From Escherichia coli (GTDB lineage Bacteria; Pseudomonadota; Gammaproteobacteria; Enterobacterales; Enterobacteriaceae): a stretch of DNA of 64,000 nt. The first letter of the stretch is position 1. Every line of letters begins with the position of its first letter. Of this stretch, positions 2,340-39,712 are shown piece after piece. The notes beneath the pieces were generated by a model. It was given only the letters and a program-made list of their open reading frames with translations. It made no database searches and was not told the DNA's origin. The stretch is from assembly GCF_016026235.1 (NCBI RefSeq), contig NZ_CP065613.1. One strand, written 5' to 3'. Position numbers and translations under genes: made by a program.

Positions 2340-3634
2340 CTGAGGGATCCCCAGAAAATTTAGTAAACCATTATCATATTGGTATACCGTTGCTGTAGAA
2401 CTTTCAGCCCTGCGTCAAGTGACAGTGTGTTTAGTATGAGTGGAGAATGTCGAATCACATTCTCCGCCAGTTTTAATAACGAGATGACTCGCCTGTGCTT
2501 CACTGTATTTGCCTGATATTTATGATGTATCCCTTTGTTTTCCAGGCTGAAACCGCTTAACCACATAATGATACTGGCTAATGTTGCGATCAGACTCAAT
2601 ACCGTGACCCGCCCAGATGAATGACTGGCACCAAACCGTAGTCCAAATCCCCAGCGAGGATTTTTTTCATCCCTGAAATTTTGCTCAATTTGCATTCTAC
2701 GGCTGTATAATTTCATTACCTGTTTTGGCGAGAACTCAGTACTGTTTGTGAAAATAAACCATGGTGATTTCCCGGCAGTACGAGCTTTAGCCGTCACCGA
2801 TGGTCTGGTTGCTCTTTCCTTCGAGCGTTTAAATCTACGACCTTTAGGCTTACTTTTATAAAGATAAAAATGCCCTTCATGTTGTGCATTTTTATCTCGA
2901 CCCAGCAGGCCTTCACCTAAATAAATTGCTGTCGTTGATGCTTTTGTGCCTGAGTCCGACACCTTTTCCCAGCCATTACCAACATTGTAATAATGATTGC
3001 CCAGTACCCGGCAAATATAGGTCCAGCCACGGGAGCGGAGCTGTTGGAACCATCGCCCCTGAAAACCGGCATCTGTAATAACAATGACATCAGTCCCGGG
3101 GGAAAAGCACTCAGCAAGCGATTCCAGAAAACGCTCATGTACATCTGCATTCGCTGTCTGTGATGATGGAACGACACAACTCATCAACGGTAAAGAACGC
3201 CCGTCACATGCCAGGCTTGCCCGCAAAAGCTGAAAACGAGAGGCATGATAAGCACTCCAGTCAATGAGTATCACAACACGAGACATTCCCCGCGTAATCT
3301 TTTGGGTAATTCGCTGAAAAATGGTGGAAACCTCATTTTGCAAATGTCGATTCCCCAACAGTCGATCCACCCGCTTTATTTTGTTTTTAACTGATGCCGT
3401 ACCGGTTAAATGACGCCCGATACTGGTAAGTGTGAGGGAAGCGCCATTTATTACAGCATTAGTTGCGTCAATCAGTGATTTTTGACGGTAAAGATGCAAA
3501 GGGGCCAGTATGTTGTTAAGGAAATTTTGGCATAATGAACGTGCAGGCATAGTGGTGATCTCCTTGAAATTGTTAGCACAATCAATTAGATCACATCTCA
3601 CTATGCCTGTCTTGTTTTCTGGGGATTCCTCAGG
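2340..3634 (-). mobile_element. IS4-family insertion sequence (IS10-like), copy 1, ~1295 bp, flanked by 9-bp direct repeat AGCATGCTC
   Basis: Imperfect terminal inverted repeats CTGAGGGATCCCCAG / CTGGGGATTCCTCAG; duplicated 9-mer at 2331..2339 and 3635..3643; internal transposase ORF. Confidence 0.85.
2360..3550 (-). CDS. IS4-family (IS10-like) DDE transposase
   Basis: Motifs KRVDRLLGNRHL, DAGF, YSRRMQIEQNFRDEK, HKYQANTVKHR resemble the IS10 transposase; start placed at MPARSLCQ by alignment to the IS10 transposase N-terminus. Confidence 0.8.
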   Translation of the reverse strand: MPARSLCQNFLNNILAPLHLYRQKSLIDATNAVINGASLTLTSIGRHLTGTASVKNKIKRVDRLLGNRHLQNEVSTIFQRITQKITRGMSRVVILIDWSAYHASRFQLLRASLACDGRSLPLMSCVVPSSQTANADVHERFLESLAECFSPGTDVIVITDAGFQGRWFQQLRSRGWTYICRVLGNHYYNVGNGWEKVSDSGTKASTTAIYLGEGLLGRDKNAQHEGHFYLYKSKPKGRRFKRSKERATRPSVTAKARTAGKSPWFIFTNSTEFSPKQVMKLYSRRMQIEQNFRDEKNPRWGFGLRFGASHSSGRVTVLSLIATLASIIMWLSGFSLENKGIHHKYQANTVKHRRVISLLKLAENVIRHSPLILNTLSLDAGLKVLQQRYTNMIMVY

Positions 3635-20668: not shown

Positions 20669-23409
20669 ATGATTACAAAAGATATAGTTGTTAGTGCATA
20701 TAATTGTCTTAAGTCATATGCTTACTACGAAAACTTAAATTTTTTCCTAAAGGAAGAAATCGCTCAATTTGAAGATTCTCTCTATGACGAAAAAATAGAA
20801 AAAGTGGTTGATTTTTTTGAAAATAATAATGACATTAACTTTAATGAGTGGCTAAATAAAATTGATGTTGAATTATTACCAAAAAAAATTGATAGCCATT
20901 TGGATATTGAGCAAACGAGCGGAGCTCTTTTTTTAAGTAATAATAAGACATCAGATGAATACAAAGTAGGTGCTGTAAATTATTTGATCGTTGCTCCTAT
21001 TGAAATATATTTAATAGAAACACTCTGGTCTATCTTTGTTGGTTCAATGCTAGATGACAAGTTTTCTGATTCGGTTTATGGAAATAGAATATCAAAAGTA
21101 ATAAAAAATATTCTAAGAATAGTTTCGATGCGCCAAAAAACTCCTCAAAAAATATCTTTGAAAGATACATTGATAATTATAATAAATGGCGAGATGGTGG
21201 TATCGATAAAGCGATAGAAGTTATAGAAAAAGAGCGAAATGATGTTGCAATTCTTTCTCTGGATCTTAAGGGTTTTTATTATAATATAGATATAGATTTT
21301 GATGCCATTGATAGAATTATTGACGAAGAACAATTAGAAGAAATTAAAGCTCTTTCTATGTTGTTGAATAGTAAATTGAGGTTGATGCATCAAAAATACA
21401 GAGAGAAAATATCTCCATATATTGGTGTGACACATTCAACTCCTTCATCAAAAGGCATTCCAATTGGATTTACTTCTTCTGCCATATTATCTAATTGGTA
21501 TTTAATGGGTTTTGATAAAGATATTAAATCAAAAATTAACCCATCGTACTACGGTCGCTATGTGGATGATATTCTTTTAGTTTTTTCATCCCCGGACATT
21601 AAAAAAGAAGATAAAGGTGAAGAAGTAATAAAATTCATAGAGCGAACCCTTAATGGATTCATTAAACAGGCAGCGAATGATGAGAAAGGCTTTACGTTGA
21701 CCGAGAGTTATCATGAATTACCAATTCAAAAGGATAAATTGATTTTTCATTATTTCAATAAAGATCATAGTTTGGCTGGTTTACAAGTCTTCAAACAAGA
21801 AATTGAGAACAGAAGCAGTGCATTTCGTTTTTTACCGGAAGAACATATATCTAGCGATCTCGATAAATTTGCTTATGATATATTACTTGATGGTTCGGCA
21901 AATAAATTTAGAAGTATTGTAGGTTTGGCAGAGAATGAAACTGAATTATCAAAATATATATCATCACATATCTTAGCTCATAGGCTTTGCAATCTTCCAT
22001 CGAATGAGAATACCTTAAAGCAAATAACGCTGTTTTTTAAAGGTGAAAATTCTCTAAGGTTCAGTCGGTTATGGGAGAAAGTTCTATCGTATACATTAAT
22101 TACAAGAAAATATGGATTTTCAATCGCCTTTTACAAACAAATTAAAGAATCAATTAATAAAATTAAGTGGAAGGAAGGTGATAGTGTTATATCTCCAAAA
22201 CTTAAAAATGGAATGCAGAAATACATTGATATTTCTCTTTGTTTGAATTTGGCTTTGTTAGATTTAAATGTCATTTTAGGTGATAAAGAGCCACAAAATA
22301 GAGCTTTGGAAGGTTTGAAATCTTTAATTAAACAGTCCGATGGAATGTCTGTTCTAATTGAAAGATTTAGAAGCAGTAATTTGATTCGTCATAATCTAGT
22401 GTCTTGGCCTTTAGCTAACTATACTAAATATAAAGGAGATCTTACTGAGGAGAATTTATACAGTAAGATGCATGGTATTCCACTTGATAATGATAAATTA
22501 AATAAAACCCCTAGATATATTCATGCTGATGAAAAGCAGCTTTTCGATTTGATTGATGCTCTTCATACAAGAAAACTACATAAGTTTACGCATGAAAATA
22601 AGCATCACTTAAAAAATTGCTCTGTTACTAAGATAAAAGATAATAAAGCTCTTGAAATAAAGGTAGGAATTGATGATAGAAGTGGTAATGACACAATAAA
22701 AGTTGCGTTGGCAAATATGAGAGTTGAACGTCGTAATATTGAAAGTGCTTGCAGAAAAGATCAGTCTCCAAATTTAAGTTATGAACGACAAAGAAACCTT
22801 TATCGTATTCTCAACTCGGCAACTGAAGAAAATGTGCAGATATTACTACTCCCTGAGTTATCAATTCCTGTGTCGTGGTTACCTTTTATGGCAGCACATT
22901 CAAGGAGAAAACAAATATCTTTGATTTTCGGATTAGAGCATTGGGTTATTAACGAACGCGCATATAATATTTTGGTTGAAATGCTGCCTTATACTTCAAA
23001 CTTTAAACACAAATCCAGTATGTTAGTTTTTCGAGTGAAAAATCATTACGCACCTAGTGAGATTACGATGCTGAATTCTTTAAGGTTAAAAATATCCTCT
23101 CCTAAACCTAGTAAACAACGGTATCATTTGATTAAGTGGAAAAACGTATCATTTTCTACATACAACTGTTTTGAACTGGCTAATATCGAGCATAGAGCAT
23201 TATTTCGTTCGCAGTTGGATATTTTATTTGCTTGCGTATGGAATCAAGATATAAATTATTATCAACATATCACTGAGTCAGCGACACGGGATTTACATTG
23301 TTATGTGGCTCAATCGAATACTTCGCATTATGGCGGTTCTTGTGTTCTACAACCGACCAGTAGCACTATTTCAAATAAGATATATGTAAAAGGTGGGGAA
23401 AACCACTGA
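20669..23409 (+). pseudogene. reverse transcriptase-nitrilase fusion (DRT1/UG1-like), with a -1 frame change near 21130-21155 and 3' end severed by IS insertion
   Basis: Frame switch between ORF 20669..21217 and the frame carrying RT motif A (AILSLDLKGFYYNID) and motif C (YGRYVDDILLVF); C-terminal nitrilase-superfamily triad motifs LLLPELSIP, FRVKNHYAPSE, STYNCFELAN; stop codon TGA supplied by the IS end. Confidence 0.7.
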
Positions 23410-24700
23410 GGGATCCCCAGAAAATTTAGTAAACCATTATCATATTGGTATACCGTTGCTGTAGAACTTTCAGCCCTGCGTCAAGTGACAGTGTGTTTAG
23501 TATGAGTGGAGAATGTCGAATCACATTCTCCGCCAGTTTTAATAACGAGATGACTCGCCTGTGCTTCACTGTATTTGCCTGATATTTATGATGTATCCCT
23601 TTGTTTTCCAGGCTGAAACCGCTTAACCACATAATGATACTGGCTAATGTTGCGATCAGACTCAATACCGTGACCCGCCCGGATGAATGACTGGCACCAA
23701 ACCGTAGTCCAAATCCCCAGCGAGGATTTTTTTCATCCCTGAAATTTTGCTCAATTTGCATTCTACGGCTGTATAATTTCATTACCTGTTTTGGCGAGAA
23801 CTCAGTACTGTTTGTGAAAATAAACCATGGTGATTTCCCGGCAGTACGAGCTTTAGCCGTCACCGATGGTCTGGTTGCTCTTTCCTTCGAGCGTTTAAAT
23901 CTACGACCTTTAGGCTTACTTTTATAAAGATAAAAATGCCCTTCATGTTGTGCATTTTTATCTCGACCCAGCAGGCCTTCACCTAAATAAATTGCTGTCG
24001 TTGATGCTTTTGTGCCTGAGTCCGACACCTTTTCCCAGCCATTACCAACATTGTAATAATGATTGCCCAGTACCCGGCAAATATAGGTCCAGCCACGGGA
24101 GCGGAGCTGTTGGAACCATCGCCCCTGAAAACCGGCATCTGTAATAACAATGACATCAGTCCCGGGGGAAAAGCACTCAGCAAGCGATTCCAGAAAACGC
24201 TCATGTACATCTGCATTCGCTGTCTGTGATGATGGAACGACACAACTCATCAACGGTAAAGAACGCCCGTCACATGCCAGGCTTGCCCGCAAAAGCTGAA
24301 AACGAGAGGCATGATAAGCACTCCAGTCAATGAGTATCACAACACGAGACATTCCCCGCGTAATCTTTTGGGTAATTCGCTGAAAAATGGTGGAAACCTC
24401 ATTTTGCAAATGTCGATTCCCCAACAGTCGATCCACCCGCTTTATTTTGTTTTTAACTGATGCCGTACCGGTTAAATGACGCCCGATACTGGTAAGTGTG
24501 AGGGAAGCGCCATTTATTACAGCATTAGTTGCGTCAATCAGTGATTTTTGACGGTAAAGATGCAAAGGGGCCAGTATGTTGTTAAGGAAATTTTGGCATA
24601 ATGAACGTGCAGGCATAGTGGTGATCTCCTTGAAATTGTTAGCACAATCAATTAGATCACATCTCACTATGCCTGTCTTGTTTTCTGGGGATTCCTCAGG
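23406..24700 (-). mobile_element. IS4-family insertion sequence (IS10-like), copy 2, flanked by 9-bp direct repeat GGAAAACCA
   Basis: Same element as copy 1 at a constant offset; duplicated 9-mer at 23397..23405 and 24701..24709. Confidence 0.85.
23426..24616 (-). CDS. IS4-family (IS10-like) DDE transposase
   Basis: Identical protein to copy 1; the ORF-track N-terminal extension crosses the IS boundary and is not part of the gene. Confidence 0.8.
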   Translation of the reverse strand: MPARSLCQNFLNNILAPLHLYRQKSLIDATNAVINGASLTLTSIGRHLTGTASVKNKIKRVDRLLGNRHLQNEVSTIFQRITQKITRGMSRVVILIDWSAYHASRFQLLRASLACDGRSLPLMSCVVPSSQTANADVHERFLESLAECFSPGTDVIVITDAGFQGRWFQQLRSRGWTYICRVLGNHYYNVGNGWEKVSDSGTKASTTAIYLGEGLLGRDKNAQHEGHFYLYKSKPKGRRFKRSKERATRPSVTAKARTAGKSPWFIFTNSTEFSPKQVMKLYSRRMQIEQNFRDEKNPRWGFGLRFGASHSSGRVTVLSLIATLASIIMWLSGFSLENKGIHHKYQANTVKHRRVISLLKLAENVIRHSPLILNTLSLDAGLKVLQQRYTNMIMVY

Positions 24701-24709
24701 GGAAAACCA

Positions 24710-24848
24710 TTGCATCCTAACTACTACTTTAAATATATATGCATTGAGAGAGGCTCAATATCGTTCATTCAGAATTAACTCCGATACTATTAAACACAAT
24801 CCTCCAGGGTTTGACTATAATGCTCTATTAGAGCGAGGTGAGAAATGA
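24710..24848 (+). pseudogene. displaced 3' end (last 45 codons) of the RT-nitrilase gene
   Basis: After removing the IS and one duplicated 9-mer the RT frame continues ...GGENH-CILTTTLNIYALREAQYRSF...ERGEK to TGA at 24846..24848. Confidence 0.65.
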
Positions 24849-25735: not shown

Positions 25736-26279
25736 TTACACAGACTGACGTGATGCCAGTTGCGCACTTTTACGCGAAAAAATCATGTTCTGCGCAGGGG
25801 TGAATTTTTCACGGCTGTCATCCACCGAAGCCGCGTCAGGCCTGAATCCGATGGTCGTTAAAATGTCGCTATCCTGTGCGGAATAATTAATTTTTTCACC
25901 CTTCGCAAGCCAGGACAGGAGGGCTTCACGCAGGGCATCTGTGGCACGCTGTATGGCACAGTTTCGGGCAATGGCCGTCAGCTCACTGTAGCCCATCAGC
26001 TCCGGTGCCAGTGCCGCCGCCAGTGCTGTGCCGTGCTGCTGCATAAAATCATTCAGCCGGTCGCGGATGCTGATGTGCTGAACGGCTTCATGCGAACGAA
26101 TATAACGACCGGCGGCCTGATTCACCTGCCATTTTCTGACTTCGATAATATTGCGTAATTCGTCCAGGCGACTGACGTTTCTGCCTTCTCCTGACAGAAG
26201 CCGCAGATATTCCTGTTCGGCCGCAGCCAGCTCATTTTTGCGTTGCAGCCATGCTGCTTTGTTATTCTGACAGGTGTCA
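25736..26279 (-). pseudogene. psu: P4 Psu-like (polarity suppression) protein, 5' end truncated by IS1
   Basis: 180-aa alpha-helical product recognised as P4 Psu-like; the first codons of ORF 25736..26293 are read from IS1 terminal sequence, so the native start is missing. Confidence 0.55.
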
Positions 26280-26334
26280 GGTAATGCTGCCAACTTACTG
26301 ATTTAGTGTATGATGGTGATTTTAAGGTGCTTGC

Positions 26335-26610
26335 GTGGCTTCCATTTCCATCAGATGTGCTTCCTGCTCCGCTACTGAAGGCGTGGTGCGTAACGGCAAA
26401 AGCACTGCCGGACATCAGCGCTATCTCTGCTCTCATTGCCGTAAAACATGGCAACTGCAGTTCACTTACACCGCCTCTCAGCCCGGTACGCACCAGAAAA
26501 TCATTGATATGGCCATGAATGGCGTCGGATGTCGCGCCAGTGCACGCATTATGGGCGTTGGCCTCAACACGGTTTTACGTCACTTAAAAAACTCAGGCCG
26601 CAGTCGGTAA
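26335..26610 (+). CDS. insA: IS1 InsA
   Basis: 91-aa product with zinc-finger CxxC...CxxC and HTH, matching InsA. Confidence 0.9.
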
Positions 26611-27032
26611 CCTCGCGCATACAACCGGGCAGTGATGTGATTGTCTGCGCTGAAATGGACGAACAGTGGGGCTACGTCGGTGCTAAATCACGTCAGCGCT
26701 GGCTGTTTTACGCGTATGACAGGATACGGAGGACGGTTGTGGCGCACGTCTTCGGTGAACGCACTCTGGCCACACTGGAGCGTCTTCTGAGCCTGCTGTC
26801 GGCCTTTGAGGTCGTGGTATAGATGACGGATGGCTGGCCGCTGTATGAATCACGCCTGAAGGGAAAGCTGCACGTTATCAGCAAGCGTTACACTCAGCGC
26901 ATTGAGCGACATAATCTGAATCTGAGACAACATCTGGCAAGGCTGGGACGGAAGTCACTGTCGTTCTCAAAATCGGTGGAGCTGCATGACAAGGTCATCG
27001 GGCATTATCTGAACATAAAACACTATCAGTAA
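26529..27032 (+). pseudogene. insB: IS1 InsB with internal TAG stop at 26820..26822
   Basis: InsB frame is split into ORFs 26529..26822 and 26823..27032 by one stop where IS1 normally has a Trp codon (VVIWMTDGW). Confidence 0.7.
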
Positions 27033-27345
27033 GTTGGAGTCATTACCCGGCGTGCGTGCCAGGTACAGTCGTTCGGCTGGAAAAATACGGGGGCTGAGCC
27101 TGCTGGCAACACTGAGCACAATAGTGCGGTGGCTTATTGGCTATCACGCTTAAAATAAAGGGGTAGATCTGAGACAGCAGGCCAACAGAATTAAAACGCG
27201 GCGGGTAATATCGTATCTGACATTAGCGAAGAATATCTTGCGATACTCCTCGCTAATTTTAAAACGAATGGTGCTGATCACCGTTCTTAATCACTTCGCC
27301 AGAACCGACCATAATATGGTGTTGGTTTATTAGCGCTGATTCATG

Positions 27346-27358
27346 GGGATCCCTCAGT
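27346..27358. repeat. solo 13-bp match (GGGGATCCCTCAG) to the terminal repeat of the IS4-family element
   Basis: Exact reverse-complement of the IS left terminus (CTGAGGGATCCCC) with no adjacent IS body. Confidence 0.4.
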
Positions 27359-27380
27359 GCTTTTGCGGTTTTTTATATCT

Positions 27381-28205
27381 TTAAAGCAGTAGCGGTAGGG
27401 TCGCGCTGGCAGTTTGCTGGCTCACATCGCTGTACTTATGATCCAGCGCAATCAGCGATGTGGTGAGTAACTCTACCAACAGCATAACTCCCACCTTGGC
27501 ATTCAGCGCGCCAGCGCTCAAGGGGCCTTCCGGTTTGGCCGCGACCAGTTGAATATCACTCAGCGAAGCTAACGGACTGCGCGGCGTATTACTCAGCGCC
27601 AGTACACGCACACCTTGCTTACGCGCTAGTTTTACGACATGCAGCAGATCGCGCGTGGATCCAGAACTGGAAATCGCCACCACGAACGTGTTTTTACTAA
27701 GTGTTGTGGCGTTCATGGCAGCACGATGCATATCGCTGAACAATTGTGCGGGTTTCCCCAGACGCAGGAGTTTGTAATGTAAATACTCCCCCAGAATAGC
27801 ACTGGCTGCTACGCCATAAATCTGTACTGACTGAGCCTGATGCAGTGCAAGCGTGGCTGCTTCCAGCAAGGTCCTATCGAGTAATTTTGCTGTGTCCTGT
27901 AGTGCTTGCACGGATTCATTGACCACATTGTCAATCTCATCACCGCCGTACTCTACAGACTGTACTTGTCGGAGATCGAGTGCAAGCGCCATTTTGAATT
28001 CGTTATAGCCCTTACACCCCAGCGTTCGGCACAGACGTGTGACGCTAGCCTCGCTGGTGCCGCTTTCACGCGCCAGTTCGGTAATCGTCAGGTAGACAAC
28101 TTTTGCCGGATCGCTAAGTACAAACTCTCCCAGCTTCTGTTGAGTTCGACTATATCCATCAACGCTCTGGCGCAATCTCAGCAGCAGGTTTTCATTTTCT
28201 GGCAT
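27381..28205 (-). CDS. RpiR/MurR-family transcriptional regulator (HTH + SIS domain)
   Basis: 274-aa ORF; N-terminal HTH (LTITELARESGTSEASVTRL) and SIS sugar-phosphate-binding region; divergent from the PTS gene. Confidence 0.8.
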   Translation of the reverse strand: MPENENLLLRLRQSVDGYSRTQQKLGEFVLSDPAKVVYLTITELARESGTSEASVTRLCRTLGCKGYNEFKMALALDLRQVQSVEYGGDEIDNVVNESVQALQDTAKLLDRTLLEAATLALHQAQSVQIYGVAASAILGEYLHYKLLRLGKPAQLFSDMHRAAMNATTLSKNTFVVAISSSGSTRDLLHVVKLARKQGVRVLALSNTPRSPLASLSDIQLVAAKPEGPLSAGALNAKVGVMLLVELLTTSLIALDHKYSDVSQQTASATLPLLL

Positions 28206-28370
28206 GCAAAATCCTTAATGCGTTTCTCTGCCGATAGTGTGGCGGAAAGTAGGGGAGAGATGCCAGTCATTTTAAAAAAGTATGATCGGTGTCTTGGTTT
28301 TTGATGGTAATTTTCATTTTTAAAATTAGTTATGGTAAAAATTTTTATCAATAATCGGGGAGATGAAAAA

Positions 28371-29927
28371 ATGATGCAAATATTTAGCGGCGCTTCGTCA
28401 GGCGCATGGTTTGAAAAAGCGCAGCGGTTCGGCAAATCGTTCATGCTGCCGATTGCGGTATTGCCCGCAGCGGGGTTGTTGTTGGGGATTGGTGGGGCTC
28501 TGTCGAATCCCAATACGTTGACGGCCTACCCATTCTTGAATGTCGACTGGCTGCAGGCAATCTTCACAATCATGACCAGCGCAGGTTCTATTGTGTTTGC
28601 CAACCTGTCGGTACTCTTTGCGGTCGGCGTCGCCGTGGGGCTGGCGAAATCGGATAAAGGCACTGCCGGGCTTGCGGCATTGCTAGCGTTTCTGGTGATG
28701 AATGCTACCATCAACGCCTTATTAACGCTAAATGGAACGTTGGCGCACAAGAACCCCGGTTCAGTTGGCCAGGGGATGACGCTTGGTATTCAGACACTGG
28801 AAACTGGTGTGTTTGGTGGGGTGGTGATTGGTCTCGTCACCTGCACGTTACATAGCCGTTTCAATAAAGTCTCACTACCTCAGTTTCTCGGTTTTTTTAG
28901 TGGTTCTCGTTTTGTACCCATTATCAGCTCCCTTGCCGCGATAGTAGTGGGTGCGGTTATGACGGTGGTGTGGCCGCATTTCCAGAAACTCATTTTTGGA
29001 CTGGGCGGCCTGGTGGATGCGACGGGCTATCTGGGGACGCTGTTGTACGGCTTCATCCTGCGTATGCTTGGTCCACTGGGTTTACACCATATCTTTTATT
29101 TGCCGTTCTGGACGACGGCGCTGGGCGGCAGTGAAATCGTCAACGGCCAGTTGGTTGAAGGTACGCAGCGGATTTTCTTTGCCCAACTTGCCGATCCGAA
29201 TACGCAGCAGTTCTACGCGGGTACCGCTCGCTTTATGTCCGGGCGCTTTATCACCATGATGTTTGGCCTGCTTGGCGCATGTCTGGCAATGTACCATACG
29301 GCAAAGCCGGAGAATAGAAAGGTTGTCGCCGGACTACTTTTGTCGGCAGCCTTGACCTCTTTCCTGACGGGAATCACTGAGCCTGTTGAGTTCTCCTTCC
29401 TGTTTGTCGCGCCCGTATTATACGTAATTCACGCCTTCTTCGATGGTCTGGCGTTTATGGTCGCCCATATTTTACATATCACTATTGGGCAAACCTTTTC
29501 GGGCGGGCTTATCGATTTCCTTCTCTTCGGCGTGTTGCAGGGGGAATCTAAAACAAACTGGATGTATGTCCCCATAGTGGGAATACCGTGGTTCTTCCTT
29601 TACTACTTCACTTTCCGCTATTTGATTAACCGCTTTGGCTGGCTGACGCCGGGTCGTGAGAACGTAACCCTGGTTGAATCCGGCCAGCCTCAGAGTGAAC
29701 GCGCAGCGGCAGTCATTGCCGGGCTGGGAGGCAAAGAGAATCTGGAAGAGGTGGACTGTTGCGCCACGCGCCTGCGCGTGACGGTTAAAGAGAGCAGTAA
29801 GGTAGATGAAGCTGCGCTGAAAGTGACCGGAGCGCGTGGCGTGATTATTCGCGGCAACGGCGTTCAGGTGATTTATGGCCCTCATGTCACCATCATTAAA
29901 AACGAAGTCGAAGAGATTTTATCGTAA
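28371..29927 (+). CDS. PTS glucose-family EIICB component
   Basis: Polytopic EIIC followed by EIIB motif CATRLR; GGGGAG Shine-Dalgarno ahead of ATG at 28371 (ORF track starts at 28332). Confidence 0.8.
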
Positions 29928-30616
29928 TGAAAACTGTACTGGATTCCCTGAAAGGTAAATTAATCGTCTCCTGTCAGGCTCTGGAAAATGAGCCTCTACA
30001 TAGTCCGTTTATTATGTCACGTATGGCGCTGGCGGCAGCACAAGGTGGTGCTGCAGGTATCCGTGCCAACAGCGTGGCGGATATTAGTGCTATCAAAGAG
30101 ATTGTCTCCCTTCCGATGATAGGGATTATCAAACGCGATTACCCTGGCAGTGAGGTGTTTATCACGGCCACTCTCCGGGAAGTGGATGAGTTGATGACCG
30201 TTGAGCCGGAAATTATTGCCCTGGATGCTACTGCGCGCCCGCGCCCTGGTGGTCAGACGCTGGAAGAACTGGTCACGCAGATCCGCGCTCGCTACCCGTC
30301 CGTACTTCTGATGGCAGATATAGCAACAGTAGAAGAGGCGGTGACAGCTGAACGTCTGGGTTTTGACTGTGTGGGCACTACGCTCTACGGCTATACCGCA
30401 GAAACTGCCAGGCATGTGCTGGCGGAAAATGACTGTGGATTCTTACGTGAGGTCCTGGCAGCGGTCAGCGTTCCGGTTGTGGCGGAAGGGAACGTCGATA
30501 CCCCGGAACGTGCCGCACGTTGCCTAACATTAGGCGCTCATACCGTGGTGGTTGGGGGGGCAATCACTCGTCCGCAGCAGATAACGACACGCTTTATCGC
30601 GGCGATCGCCTCGTAA
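29927..30616 (+). CDS. putative N-acetylmannosamine-6-phosphate 2-epimerase (NanE family)
   Basis: 229-aa TIM-barrel-like product; start overlaps the EIICB stop (TAATG). Confidence 0.75.
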
Positions 30617-30643
30617 AGCACCGATGGGGTATGATACTTTGGT

Positions 30644-30673
30644 GGGGATAAGCGATAATTATCGCTTATCCCC
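30644..30673. repeat. perfect 30-bp palindrome GGGGATAAGCGATAATTATCGCTTATCCCC
   Basis: Exact dyad symmetry directly downstream of the NanE-like gene, without a T-run. Confidence 0.6.
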
Positions 30674-31856
30674 ATATTGAGAGTGTTATGCAGTACCCGA
30701 TTAGCTAGATTTTCCAGACCCTGCAAGGTGAGGGGGACTATTGACGCGCTGGACGAACTATTCGCCACGCTGAGCTACGACAAACCGCGGGTGATTGCGC
30801 TGCACTTTAAAATTTCCGAAGGTTATACCCTGTTGATGCTGATTACCACCTTCACCAGCTGCCTGATATTGTGCAAAAACTACGGCTGGTGAAGGTTGGT
30901 TTTACCATTACTGCTGTATATACCCTGCAACTGTTATGGCTGAATGGCGAGCAGTACATCCTTCCGTGTCTTATCAACACCATTATTGGTTGTTTAATTG
31001 CTTCGGCGGTACCGTCTGGTTGTGGTCACAGTGGTATAACGGGTTATTGCGTAAGAATGCCCATGACGCTTCAGAAGCCTATCAGAAAGTGATATTGGCT
31101 CAGCAGCACTTTACAAACGGCGGTACAGTGGCTGGGAGATTATTGCCGATCCGATATGCCGCATTAATGAGAGAGTTCATCATAGGAGAACGCTTTTGCC
31201 AAATAAACCACCTGCCTGTCGTCCAGAATCGCCGCGTAGCTGGTTTTCCCAACCGTTTGCTCAGAAATGAGATCAATAGCCGCAAATCGCGGGCCTGATC
31301 GATGCTTTCAATATAGTTAGCCGCCATTTTTTGCAGCGCCAGGCCCACGTGATACAAGCGTGTATCCGGCATATAGAGCGGATAGTCGTTATCGAGAAAC
31401 TCCTGAGTCAGGCAGTGGGCGGAGCTTCTGGGAATATAGAGGTAATCTGCGAGGCGATCTGATGTATAATCTGTTTAGTAAGAGTAGCGTTTTTAACGCT
31501 ATTACGTCCATGGTGTAGCCTATATGCAGGCAAAGTTCATATCCTTGAGTTTTATGTCAGCCTCTTCCTTTAAGCATCTACTTGGTGTCTATCGTTACTT
31601 CGCACACAAGCATCATGTATATGATGTAACGAAATTAGTTAACGCCCTTATAAGAATCAAGACGTTATCGGGACGCTGTTAACCTGGCTATCCATCCCAA
31701 AACCGGTGCTGACTGGCAATAGCGCGGACAGCAAAATCGGGTGATGACACCGGGGCAGAATGAAAAATATTATCTTGCTGGCGCGTTACATAGCTGAACG
31801 GGCAAAGTCTGCTACGTGGGCAGTAACCGCAAAGTTCAGCCTTATTTATCAGTCTG

Positions 31857-38417: not shown

Positions 38418-39712
38418 CTGAGGGATCCCCAGAAAATTTAGTAAACCATTATCATATTGGTATACCGTTGCTGTAGAACTTTCAGCCCTGCGTCAAGTGA
38501 CAGTGTGTTTAGTATGAGTGGAGAATGTCGAATCACATTCTCCGCCAGTTTTAATAACGAGATGACTCGCCTGTGCTTCACTGTATTTGCCTGATATTTA
38601 TGATGTATCCCTTTGTTTTCCAGGCTGAAACCGCTTAACCACATAATGATACTGGCTAATGTTGCGATCAGACTCAATACCGTGACCCGCCCGGATGAAT
38701 GACTGGCACCAAACCGTAGTCCAAATCCCCAGCGAGGATTTTTTTCATCCCTGAAATTTTGCTCAATTTGCATTCTACGGCTGTATAATTTCATTACCTG
38801 TTTTGGCGAGAACTCAGTACTGTTTGTGAAAATAAACCATGGTGATTTCCCGGCAGTACGAGCTTTAGCCGTCACCGATGGTCTGGTTGCTCTTTCCTTC
38901 GAGCGTTTAAATCTACGACCTTTAGGCTTACTTTTATAAAGATAAAAATGCCCTTCATGTTGTGCATTTTTATCTCGACCCAGCAGGCCTTCACCTAAAT
39001 AAATTGCTGTCGTTGATGCTTTTGTGCCTGAGTCCGACACCTTTTCCCAGCCATTACCAACATTGTAATAATGATTGCCCAGTACCCGGCAAATATAGGT
39101 CCAGCCACGGGAGCGGAGCTGTTGGAACCATCGCCCCTGAAAACCGGCATCTGTAATAACAATGACATCAGTCCCGGGGGAAAAGCACTCAGCAAGCGAT
39201 TCCAGAAAACGCTCATGTACATCTGCATTCGCTGTCTGTGATGATGGAACGACACAACTCATCAACGGTAAAGAACGCCCGTCACATGCCAGGCTTGCCC
39301 GCAAAAGCTGAAAACGAGAGGCATGATAAGCACTCCAGTCAATGAGTATCACAACACGAGACATTCCCCGCGTAATCTTTTGGGTAATTCGCTGAAAAAT
39401 GGTGGAAACCTCATTTTGCAAATGTCGATTCCCCAACAGTCGATCCACCCGCTTTATTTTGTTTTTAACTGATGCCGTACCGGTTAAATGACGCCCGATA
39501 CTGGTAAGTGTGAGGGAAGCGCCATTTATTACAGCATTAGTTGCGTCAATCAGTGATTTTTGACGGTAAAGATGCAAAGGGGCCAGTATATTGTTAAGGA
39601 AATTTTGGCATAATGAACGTGCAGGCATAGTGGTGATCTCCTTGAAATTGTTAGCACAATCAATTAGATCACATCTCACTATGCCTGTCTTGTTTTCTGG
39701 GGATTCCTCAGG
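38418..39712 (-). mobile_element. IS4-family insertion sequence (IS10-like), copy 3, flanked by 9-bp direct repeat AGTGATCCC
   Basis: Same termini as copies 1 and 2; duplicated 9-mer at 38409..38417 and 39713..39721; target lies in GGGGAGTGATCCCC. Confidence 0.85.
38438..39628 (-). CDS. IS4-family (IS10-like) DDE transposase
   Basis: Identical protein to copies 1 and 2. Confidence 0.8.
   Translation of the reverse strand: MPARSLCQNFLNNILAPLHLYRQKSLIDATNAVINGASLTLTSIGRHLTGTASVKNKIKRVDRLLGNRHLQNEVSTIFQRITQKITRGMSRVVILIDWSAYHASRFQLLRASLACDGRSLPLMSCVVPSSQTANADVHERFLESLAECFSPGTDVIVITDAGFQGRWFQQLRSRGWTYICRVLGNHYYNVGNGWEKVSDSGTKASTTAIYLGEGLLGRDKNAQHEGHFYLYKSKPKGRRFKRSKERATRPSVTAKARTAGKSPWFIFTNSTEFSPKQVMKLYSRRMQIEQNFRDEKNPRWGFGLRFGASHSSGRVTVLSLIATLASIIMWLSGFSLENKGIHHKYQANTVKHRRVISLLKLAENVIRHSPLILNTLSLDAGLKVLQQRYTNMIMVY

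Follow-up and report, generated by a model that had tools for sequence, protein, structure and literature searches.

The probable end of a dead IS10-group element beside an rpiR-type regulator gene in Escherichia coli

The stretch of DNA analyzed here, 64,000 nucleotides of the E. coli contig NZ_CP065613.1 (hereafter, the window), carries beside an rpiR-type regulator gene a 13-mer that is very probably the genuine transposase-3′ terminal inverted repeat of a dead IS10-group element, a sister of ISEc60 and ISSfl1, inserted in an eno/rpiR terminator and later truncated. The initial annotation had described the 13-mer as an orphan terminus with no IS body nearby. This was wrong: a 310-bp IS remnant at positions 27048–27357 ends with the 13-mer. 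The first reading is corrected in that the sequence is not an orphan, is not derived from ISEc60, and was cut by IS1. The relic is an ordinary dead IS remnant, which RefSeq, in a sister genome, already lists as part of an IS4-family transposase, and one-ended, truncated IS copies are common in E. coli and Shigella islands.

Terminal Sequence

The 13-mer, GGGGATCCCTCAG at 27345–27357 on the + strand, is the exact reverse complement of CTGAGGGATCCCC, the left terminus of an IS10-like element, ISEc60, as had been claimed; it was verified against the three intact copies of this element in the window. A blastn-short comparison of ISEc60 with the window extends the exact identity to 14 bp, and these 14 bp (27344–27357, + strand) form the relic's terminal inverted repeat at the 3′ side of the transposase gene, conventionally called IRR. 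Exact copies of the 13-mer are found in the window only at the three ISEc60 ends and at 27345–27357, and no second terminus within two mismatches is present in the window besides the ISEc60 ends.

A 13-mer might arise by chance in native intergenic DNA. An exact match of this length is expected about 0.002 times in 64 kb on both strands and about 0.15 times in a 5-Mb genome. When the whole 1294-bp ISEc60 is compared, three further 13-mer matches of its internal positions do occur in the window, and because of them the match length alone proves nothing. The significance of the 13-mer lies rather in its position at the exact terminus and in its continuation into homologous IS sequence. It coincides with the terminus in the right orientation, it adjoins 296 bp of homologous IS, and it is missing from the empty site in Citrobacter and Raoultella (see below). 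We regard a chance origin as extremely improbable.

The terminus is shared by a whole clade. CTGAGGGATCCCC is common to the transposase-3′ ends of ISEc60, ISSfl1, an IS in E. coli SCU-123, and the relic, while the 5′ end is CTGAGGAATCCCC in ISEc60, ISSfl1, and the SCU-123 element. Position 7 of the relic terminus is G, like the transposase-3′ ends of ISEc60, ISSfl1, and the SCU-123 element, whose 5′ ends have A. The same asymmetry, A on the 5′ side of the transposase gene and G on its 3′ side, is consistent in these three elements and in an IS10A-family copy. The shared 13-mer reflects clade-wide conservation of the terminal repeat and not descent of the relic from ISEc60.

Body of the Relic

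The 310-bp remnant (27048–27357, + strand) of an IS4-family, IS10-group element was recognized by its homology to the SCU-123 element, a 1312-bp IS, and by the RefSeq annotation of an identical sequence. Its left edge at 27048 was set by comparison with a longer relic (L004), which is 82.7% identical to the 1312-bp IS over 740 bp. The remnant contains a transposase pseudogene fragment (27049–27333, + strand) that covers the last 94 codons with an internal stop after codon 34, followed by 24 bp including the terminal repeat. The fragment reads toward the 13-mer, and its translation ends with ...NMVLVY*, while the intact ISEc60 transposase ends with ...NMIMVY*.

The closest intact relative of the relic is the 1312-bp IS encoding WP_001111620.1, located between rtT and narI in SCU-123 (L002, 1994–3305). 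The relic is 88.2% identical in nucleotide sequence to positions 1008–1312 of this element over 305 bp, and its translated fragment gives a gapless alignment with the C-terminal 94 residues of the 399-aa IS4-family transposase at 73% identity (E = 7e-43). Nucleotide identity is 80% to a copy on a Salmonella plasmid and 77% to ISSfl1. The fragment also aligns without gaps to the C-terminal 94 residues of the ISEc60 transposase, with 45% identity (E = 1e-22); blastn aligned nothing between the relic and ISEc60 outside the terminal 14 bp. The distance from the stop codon to the terminus is 24 bp in both the relic and the SCU-123 element, and 20 bp in intact ISEc60 owing to a 4-bp indel. The blastn-short comparison with ISEc60 alone suggested a true orphan; the body came to light only when the comparison was made at the protein level and with further E. 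coli IS elements.

The surviving fragment aligns to the C-termini of transposases that score 344–360 bits on NF033591 (transpos_IS4_2) and match PF01609. The fragment alone gives no Pfam match; the DDE domain is gone. A terminal inverted repeat of the CTGA..ATCCCC type (CTGAGGGATCCCC) is present at the boundary of the relic, where homology to the uninterrupted Citrobacter sequence begins. A second inverted repeat and a target-site duplication are lacking, and none of the strains examined retains the 5′ part of the element. Such a one-ended state is expected for a truncated relic, which is a remnant and not a complete member of the IS4 family. A miniature element (MITE or solo-IR type) was also considered as a candidate and rejected, as the sequence has a single terminus and a single locus per genome, always beside rpiR.

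By the ISfinder convention, copies of one IS share >90% DNA or 95% protein identity. The relic shares 45% protein identity with ISEc60, with a blastn alignment of only the terminal 14 bp, and its DNA identity to the 1312-bp E. coli IS (88.2%) lies under 90%. Judged from these alignments, the relic is either a decayed copy of the 1312-bp IS or a sister element of it. As the nearest intact relative is 88% identical, no name is assigned to the presumed parent element.

It had been proposed that the 13-mer is a relic of an IS-mediated deletion. Relic it is, and what fails is the notion of an isolated terminus, since 310 bp of the body remain. In its specific form, the proposal would make the 13-mer a solo remnant of ISEc60 left by an ISEc60-mediated deletion, for which one may cite the exact 14-bp identity to the ISEc60 terminus and the activity of ISEc60, whose copies in the window are 1–2 nt apart and which occupies at least 38 places in a sister genome. 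However, the adjoining 296 bp have no blastn similarity and 45% protein identity to ISEc60 and are 88% identical to another IS. Furthermore, the relic lies at one junction in about 460 E. coli genomes, as opposed to the 14 genomes with near-full-length ISEc60, and the truncating element is IS1 and not ISEc60. An origin from ISEc60 is thus very unlikely, and we retain the reading of the 13-mer as the end of a different, dead IS10-group element.

Insertion Site at the eno/rpiR Terminator

The neighboring gene was confirmed to encode an RpiR-type regulator of the RpiR/MurR family, with HTH_6 and SIS domains (27381–28205, – strand); the distance from its stop codon to the IS terminus is 23 bp. This is the first gene of a horizontally acquired sugar-utilization cassette that continues with a PTS EIIBC gene (28332–29927) and an epimerase gene, nanE (29927–30616). 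Orthologues of the regulator share 95% protein identity in Citrobacter freundii, 89% in Raoultella, and 88% in Enterobacter. The gene order in Citrobacter is queE-nanE-PTS-rpiR-eno-pyrG. Raoultella has the same nanE-PTS-rpiR-eno-pyrG order with an epimerase-family gene in place of queE, and in Enterobacter rpiR and eno are separated by an epimerase-family gene.

In C. freundii, the convergent rpiR and eno genes are separated by a canonical bidirectional terminator hairpin, AAAAACCCGCTGCGGCGGGTTTTTTT. Starting from rpiR, the E. coli and Citrobacter sequences are homologous across the T-run, the right arm, and the loop, and the homology breaks off within the left arm, exactly at the base that follows the IS terminus. 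What is left of the insertion target in the window is TGCTTTTGCGGTTTTTTAT (27358–27376), which corresponds to the former eno/rpiR hairpin from its loop through the right arm to the T-run. From this alignment, the ancestral rpiR terminator would have been a hairpin of the Citrobacter type, of which the right half alone appears to remain in E. coli. The 13-mer is absent from the uninterrupted Citrobacter and Raoultella sites, and it is therefore borne by the IS and not native. The first 9–10 bp after the terminus, at the center of the hairpin (CGCTTCGGCG in AF43 and TGCTTTTGCG in the window), are presumed to be the copy of the target duplication that survives. Its counterpart is lost together with the other IS end in every genome examined, because of which the insertion cannot be reconstructed from both sides.

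The 13-mer itself was also tried as a part of the rpiR terminator, a reading set aside as improbable. A terminator scan gave a lone weak stem of five pairs, TGGGGATCCCTCA then GTGCTTTTGC, on the + strand, antisense to rpiR, and folds around the 13-mer are no better than those of shuffled sequences (z = –1.3 to –1.6). Neither scanning nor folding gave a convincing promoter or terminator that involves the 13-mer.

The cassette (window 27358–30740; L012, L014, L016) is native between eno and queE in C. freundii and is found in E. coli in islands in several chromosomal contexts. It is bounded by the IS relic on one side, and on the other side, in AF43, by a partial queE-like (radical SAM) pseudogene. 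This distribution suggests that the cassette was captured and spread horizontally.

Truncation by IS1 and the P4-Like Island

On its left, the relic is cut by a 768-bp IS1 (26280–27047, + strand), whose transposase gene has an internal stop. The region from 26300 to 28300 is 99.9% identical to that of E. coli FDAARGOS_943, in which RefSeq annotates an IS1 transposase pseudogene (window 26335–27032), then a partial "IS4 family transposase" pseudogene without the N-terminus (window 27049–27333), and then a MurR/RpiR regulator. The flanks of IS1 are unrelated (caggtgtca and cggcgtgcg), without a target-site duplication. The junctions themselves can be read directly, and the absence of a duplication points to an adjacent deletion mediated by IS1 or to recombination between two IS1 copies. 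A deletion by the IS10-like element, the other part of the earlier proposal, thus gives way to truncation by IS1.

To the left of IS1 lies psu of a P4-like island whose integrase gene is next to a tRNA-Leu gene. As annotated, the psu ORF (phage polarity suppression; 25736–26293) begins inside the left end of IS1 (26280–26293); the true 5′ end of psu has been removed by the IS1 junction and replaced by IS1 sequence. In the same island, a large reverse-transcriptase gene ("RNA-directed DNA polymerase") is split by an ISEc60 copy into 21358–23409 and 24700–24848 and is followed by a gene for a 229-aa hypothetical protein, both between the tRNA-Leu integrase and psu. In FDAARGOS_943, the reverse-transcriptase gene is uninterrupted by ISEc60 yet frameshifted. 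By analogy, the position of this locus appears to resemble the anti-phage defense hotspot of P4-like satellites.

Distribution and Age

Comparison with related strains had been recommended, and it places the relic at the same rpiR junction in many of them. With a 500-bp probe spanning the relic/rpiR junction, coverage of at least 80% was obtained in 459 of 5426 complete E. coli genomes, including O104:H4, O55:H7, ST131, and NCTC86. No relic copy of at least 99% identity was detected away from rpiR, as judged from counts, 459 of the 494 matching records covering the junction; the remaining matching records are lower identity classes and partial matches to the intact relative. Since the relic is present in about 460 genomes and near-full-length ISEc60 in 14, the relic is much older than the expansion of ISEc60.

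The length of the relic varies between strains. It is 738 bp in 13C1079T, without IS1; 310 bp in this window and in FDAARGOS_943, where IS1 adjoins; 287 bp in AF43; 133 bp in ST131, where IS1 adjoins with another left flank; and 122 bp in BEN2908. In cassette alleles diverged by 6–10%, the relic persists but the terminus itself is mutated, as in AF43 (GGGGAGCCCCCAG) and BEN2908 (GGGGAGCACCCAG), and such mutated termini are as expected under neutral decay.

ISEc60 in the Window

The intact 1294-bp element of the window is ISEc60, after the PGAP name given to identical copies ("IS4-like element ISEc60 family transposase"). Its three copies are in one orientation, differ by 1–2 nt, and are each flanked by 10-bp direct repeats; each starts with CTGAGGGATCCCC and finishes with GGGGATTCCTCAG. 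Copy A (2340–3633, – strand) is intact and lies at the center of the palindrome GGCCGGAGCATGCTCCGGCC, with the target-site duplication GAGCATGCTC. Copy B (23406–24699, – strand), also intact, is the one in the reverse-transcriptase gene of the P4-like island, with the duplication GGGAAAACCA. Copy C (38418–39711, – strand), again intact, lies at the center of GGCGGGGAGTGATCCCCGCC, with the duplication GAGTGATCCC. The initial designation of the element as IS10-like was fair: its transposase scores 360 bits on NF033591 (IS4 family) with a PF01609 match and is 36% identical to that of IS10A/ISVsa5 over 93% of its length, and the termini are similar. Identity to the ISSfl1 transposase is 51.6%.

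FDAARGOS_943 has an empty site at copy B and is without insertions at both sites A and B. The copy B insertion was found in none of the complete E. coli genomes of the collection. Near-full-length ISEc60 occurs in only 14 genomes of the collection, and at least 38 ISEc60 places are found in FDAARGOS_943. With nearly identical copies in the window and many places in the sister genome, ISEc60 is active and multiplying in the lineage of the window. The annotated gene content of FDAARGOS_943 (compared record, NZ_CP065615.1) appears to differ from the ORFs of the window beyond about 36 kb. A literature search found no published description of the ends or the target of ISEc60, only mentions of its name.

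Copy B and the relic offer another possible scenario, in which the relic end is still usable by the ISEc60 transposase in trans and pairs with an ISEc60 end to move or delete the intervening island DNA. Positions 23406 and 27357 are indeed perfect 14-bp inverted termini that bracket 3952 bp in the correct orientation with respect to the left end of copy B, and IS10-type transposases, as in Tn10/IS10, use various combinations of ends. However, past position 14 the relic departs from the ISEc60 ends, whereas the ISEc60 ends agree with each other at 19 of their first 20 bp. In addition, about 14 perfectly retained bases are nothing unusual where overall identity is about 90%, and the lack of any detected copy of at least 99% identity away from rpiR gives no sign of past movement of the relic. 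We consider continued use of this end very improbable. If it were still recognized, the end of a dead relative could be cross-mobilized by a living IS.

Target Preference

Eleven ISEc60 insertions were examined, three in the window and eight in other genomes and plasmids. All have duplications of 10–11 bp whose first base is G, and about 8 of the 11 sites lie at the center of GC-rich palindromes and form a strong hairpin with the duplication in its middle, for example, GGCCGGAGCATGCTCCGGCC, GGCGGGGAGTGATCCCCGCC, and GGCGGGGATTTTCCCCGCC (window 2325–2339/3634–3648 and 38403–38417/39712–39726; L017–L024). ISEc60 appears to prefer the centers of GGGG(N4–7)CCCC, terminator-like palindromes, in which it resembles IS186. 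In one plasmid (L023), an ISEc60 copy and an IS186-type end are directly adjacent at a GC-rich palindrome. The plasmid pCFSAN029787_01 (L017, 65538–66991) has two head-to-tail ISEc60 copies with one 10-bp duplication, GGTAAATCCC, between them, an arrangement that implies repeated insertion at the same palindromic site. If the preference holds genome-wide, landing sites of ISEc60 and the terminators destroyed by it could be better predicted.

The rpiR terminator has received more than one element. In UTME-7, whose rpiR is 85% identical, a different IS4-family relic (L006, 3816–3994) ends at the same nucleotide of the rpiR terminator, aligned to window position 27358. No resemblance of this relic to the ISEc60 or L002 transposases was detected, and it ends in an IS186-like sequence. 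UTME-7 was considered as an empty site and was rejected as such, given the unrelated IS4-family relic at the junction. The coincidence suggests that the rpiR terminator hairpin is a recurrent landing site of IS elements.

This observation also bears on the second proposal of the initial annotation, namely, that the element is drawn to the 13-mer as a short attracting sequence. In this case, a native host 13-mer would mimic the IS end, and the fact that two distinct IS4-family lineages arrived at one and the same nucleotide would fit such an attraction. The proposal does not survive comparison with the uninterrupted Citrobacter and Raoultella sites, from which the 13-mer is missing: it is borne by the IS, and the attracting feature is the terminator palindrome. 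Moreover, ISEc60 targets palindromes of the GGGG(N4–7)CCCC type, unlike its own end; none of its three copies in the window adjoins the relic, and no ISEc60 was seen to abut the 13-mer in about 460 genomes. The likelihood of a native attracting 13-mer is negligible. The attractor of IS4-family elements is the flanking GC-rich hairpin and not the 13-mer, which we continue to read as the end of the inserted element.

Proposed History of the Relic

These observations are consistent with the following course of events. An IS10-group (IS4-family) element, whose nearest intact relative is the IS encoding WP_001111620.1, would have inserted into the GC-rich bidirectional terminator hairpin between eno and rpiR, presumably in the lineage that donated the rpiR-PTS-nanE cassette. 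The cassette would then have reached the E. coli genomic islands in which it is now seen with the IS end as its left boundary. The IS decayed and was truncated repeatedly from its interior, as the relics of 738, 310, 287, 133, and 122 bp show. In the window, IS1 abuts at 27048 and joins the relic to psu of the P4-like island at leuX, probably through an IS1-mediated deletion or IS1-IS1 recombination, given the missing duplication. The terminal 13–14 bp, needed for recognition and cleavage by the transposase, are kept throughout the clade, which accounts for the identity with ISEc60.

With one end and no transposase, the relic is immobile, and most likely it has no function. Its main lasting effect may plausibly be that it deprived the rpiR/eno terminator of its left arm and its distal T-run. 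The relic marks the point at which the Citrobacter-type rpiR-PTS-nanE cassette parted from its native eno and is in this sense a small clue to the mobility of the cassette. From its place at the boundary, the IS may have taken part in the movement of the cassette.

Comparison with Known Elements

The 1312-bp IS and the relic are identical in their last 15 bp (ATGGGGATCCCTCAG) and in the spacing between the stop codon and the terminus. Downstream of narI, the 1312-bp IS is also inserted in a terminator hairpin. It is a full-length element with an intact 399-aa transposase and two ends, whereas the relic keeps 310 bp of the 3′ part, with a stop inside the reading frame. Because of the 12% divergence, the relic is not a recent copy of this IS.

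ISEc60 and the relic belong to the same clade and have an identical 14-bp terminus on the transposase-3′ side and homologous C-terminal transposase sequences. The full-length transposases of ISEc60 and the 1312-bp IS are 53% identical. ISEc60 is intact and multiplying in the lineage of the window, whereas the relic is old and widespread. ISSfl1, an IS4-family element of the Shigella flexneri virulence plasmid, has the terminal 13-mer of the relic and, at 77% nucleotide identity, is farther from it than the 1312-bp IS; the ISSfl1 copy examined has a 9-bp target duplication.

IS10 (IS10A/ISVsa5; Tn10) falls in the same subgroup. The termini of an IS10A-family copy, CTGAAGAATCCCC and CTGAAGGATCCCC, differ from those of the clade at 1 of 13 positions and share the A/G asymmetry at position 7. 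IS10 generates 9-bp duplications at NGCTNAGCN-type sites; the ISEc60 insertions examined, unlike those of IS10, have duplications of 10–11 bp at GC-rich palindromes. In this respect, ISEc60 and the parent of the relic are like IS186, for which GGGG(N6/N7)CCCC is reported as the target (PMC5009759): all of them have inserted into GC-rich palindromic hairpins, and the likeness is one of target choice only.
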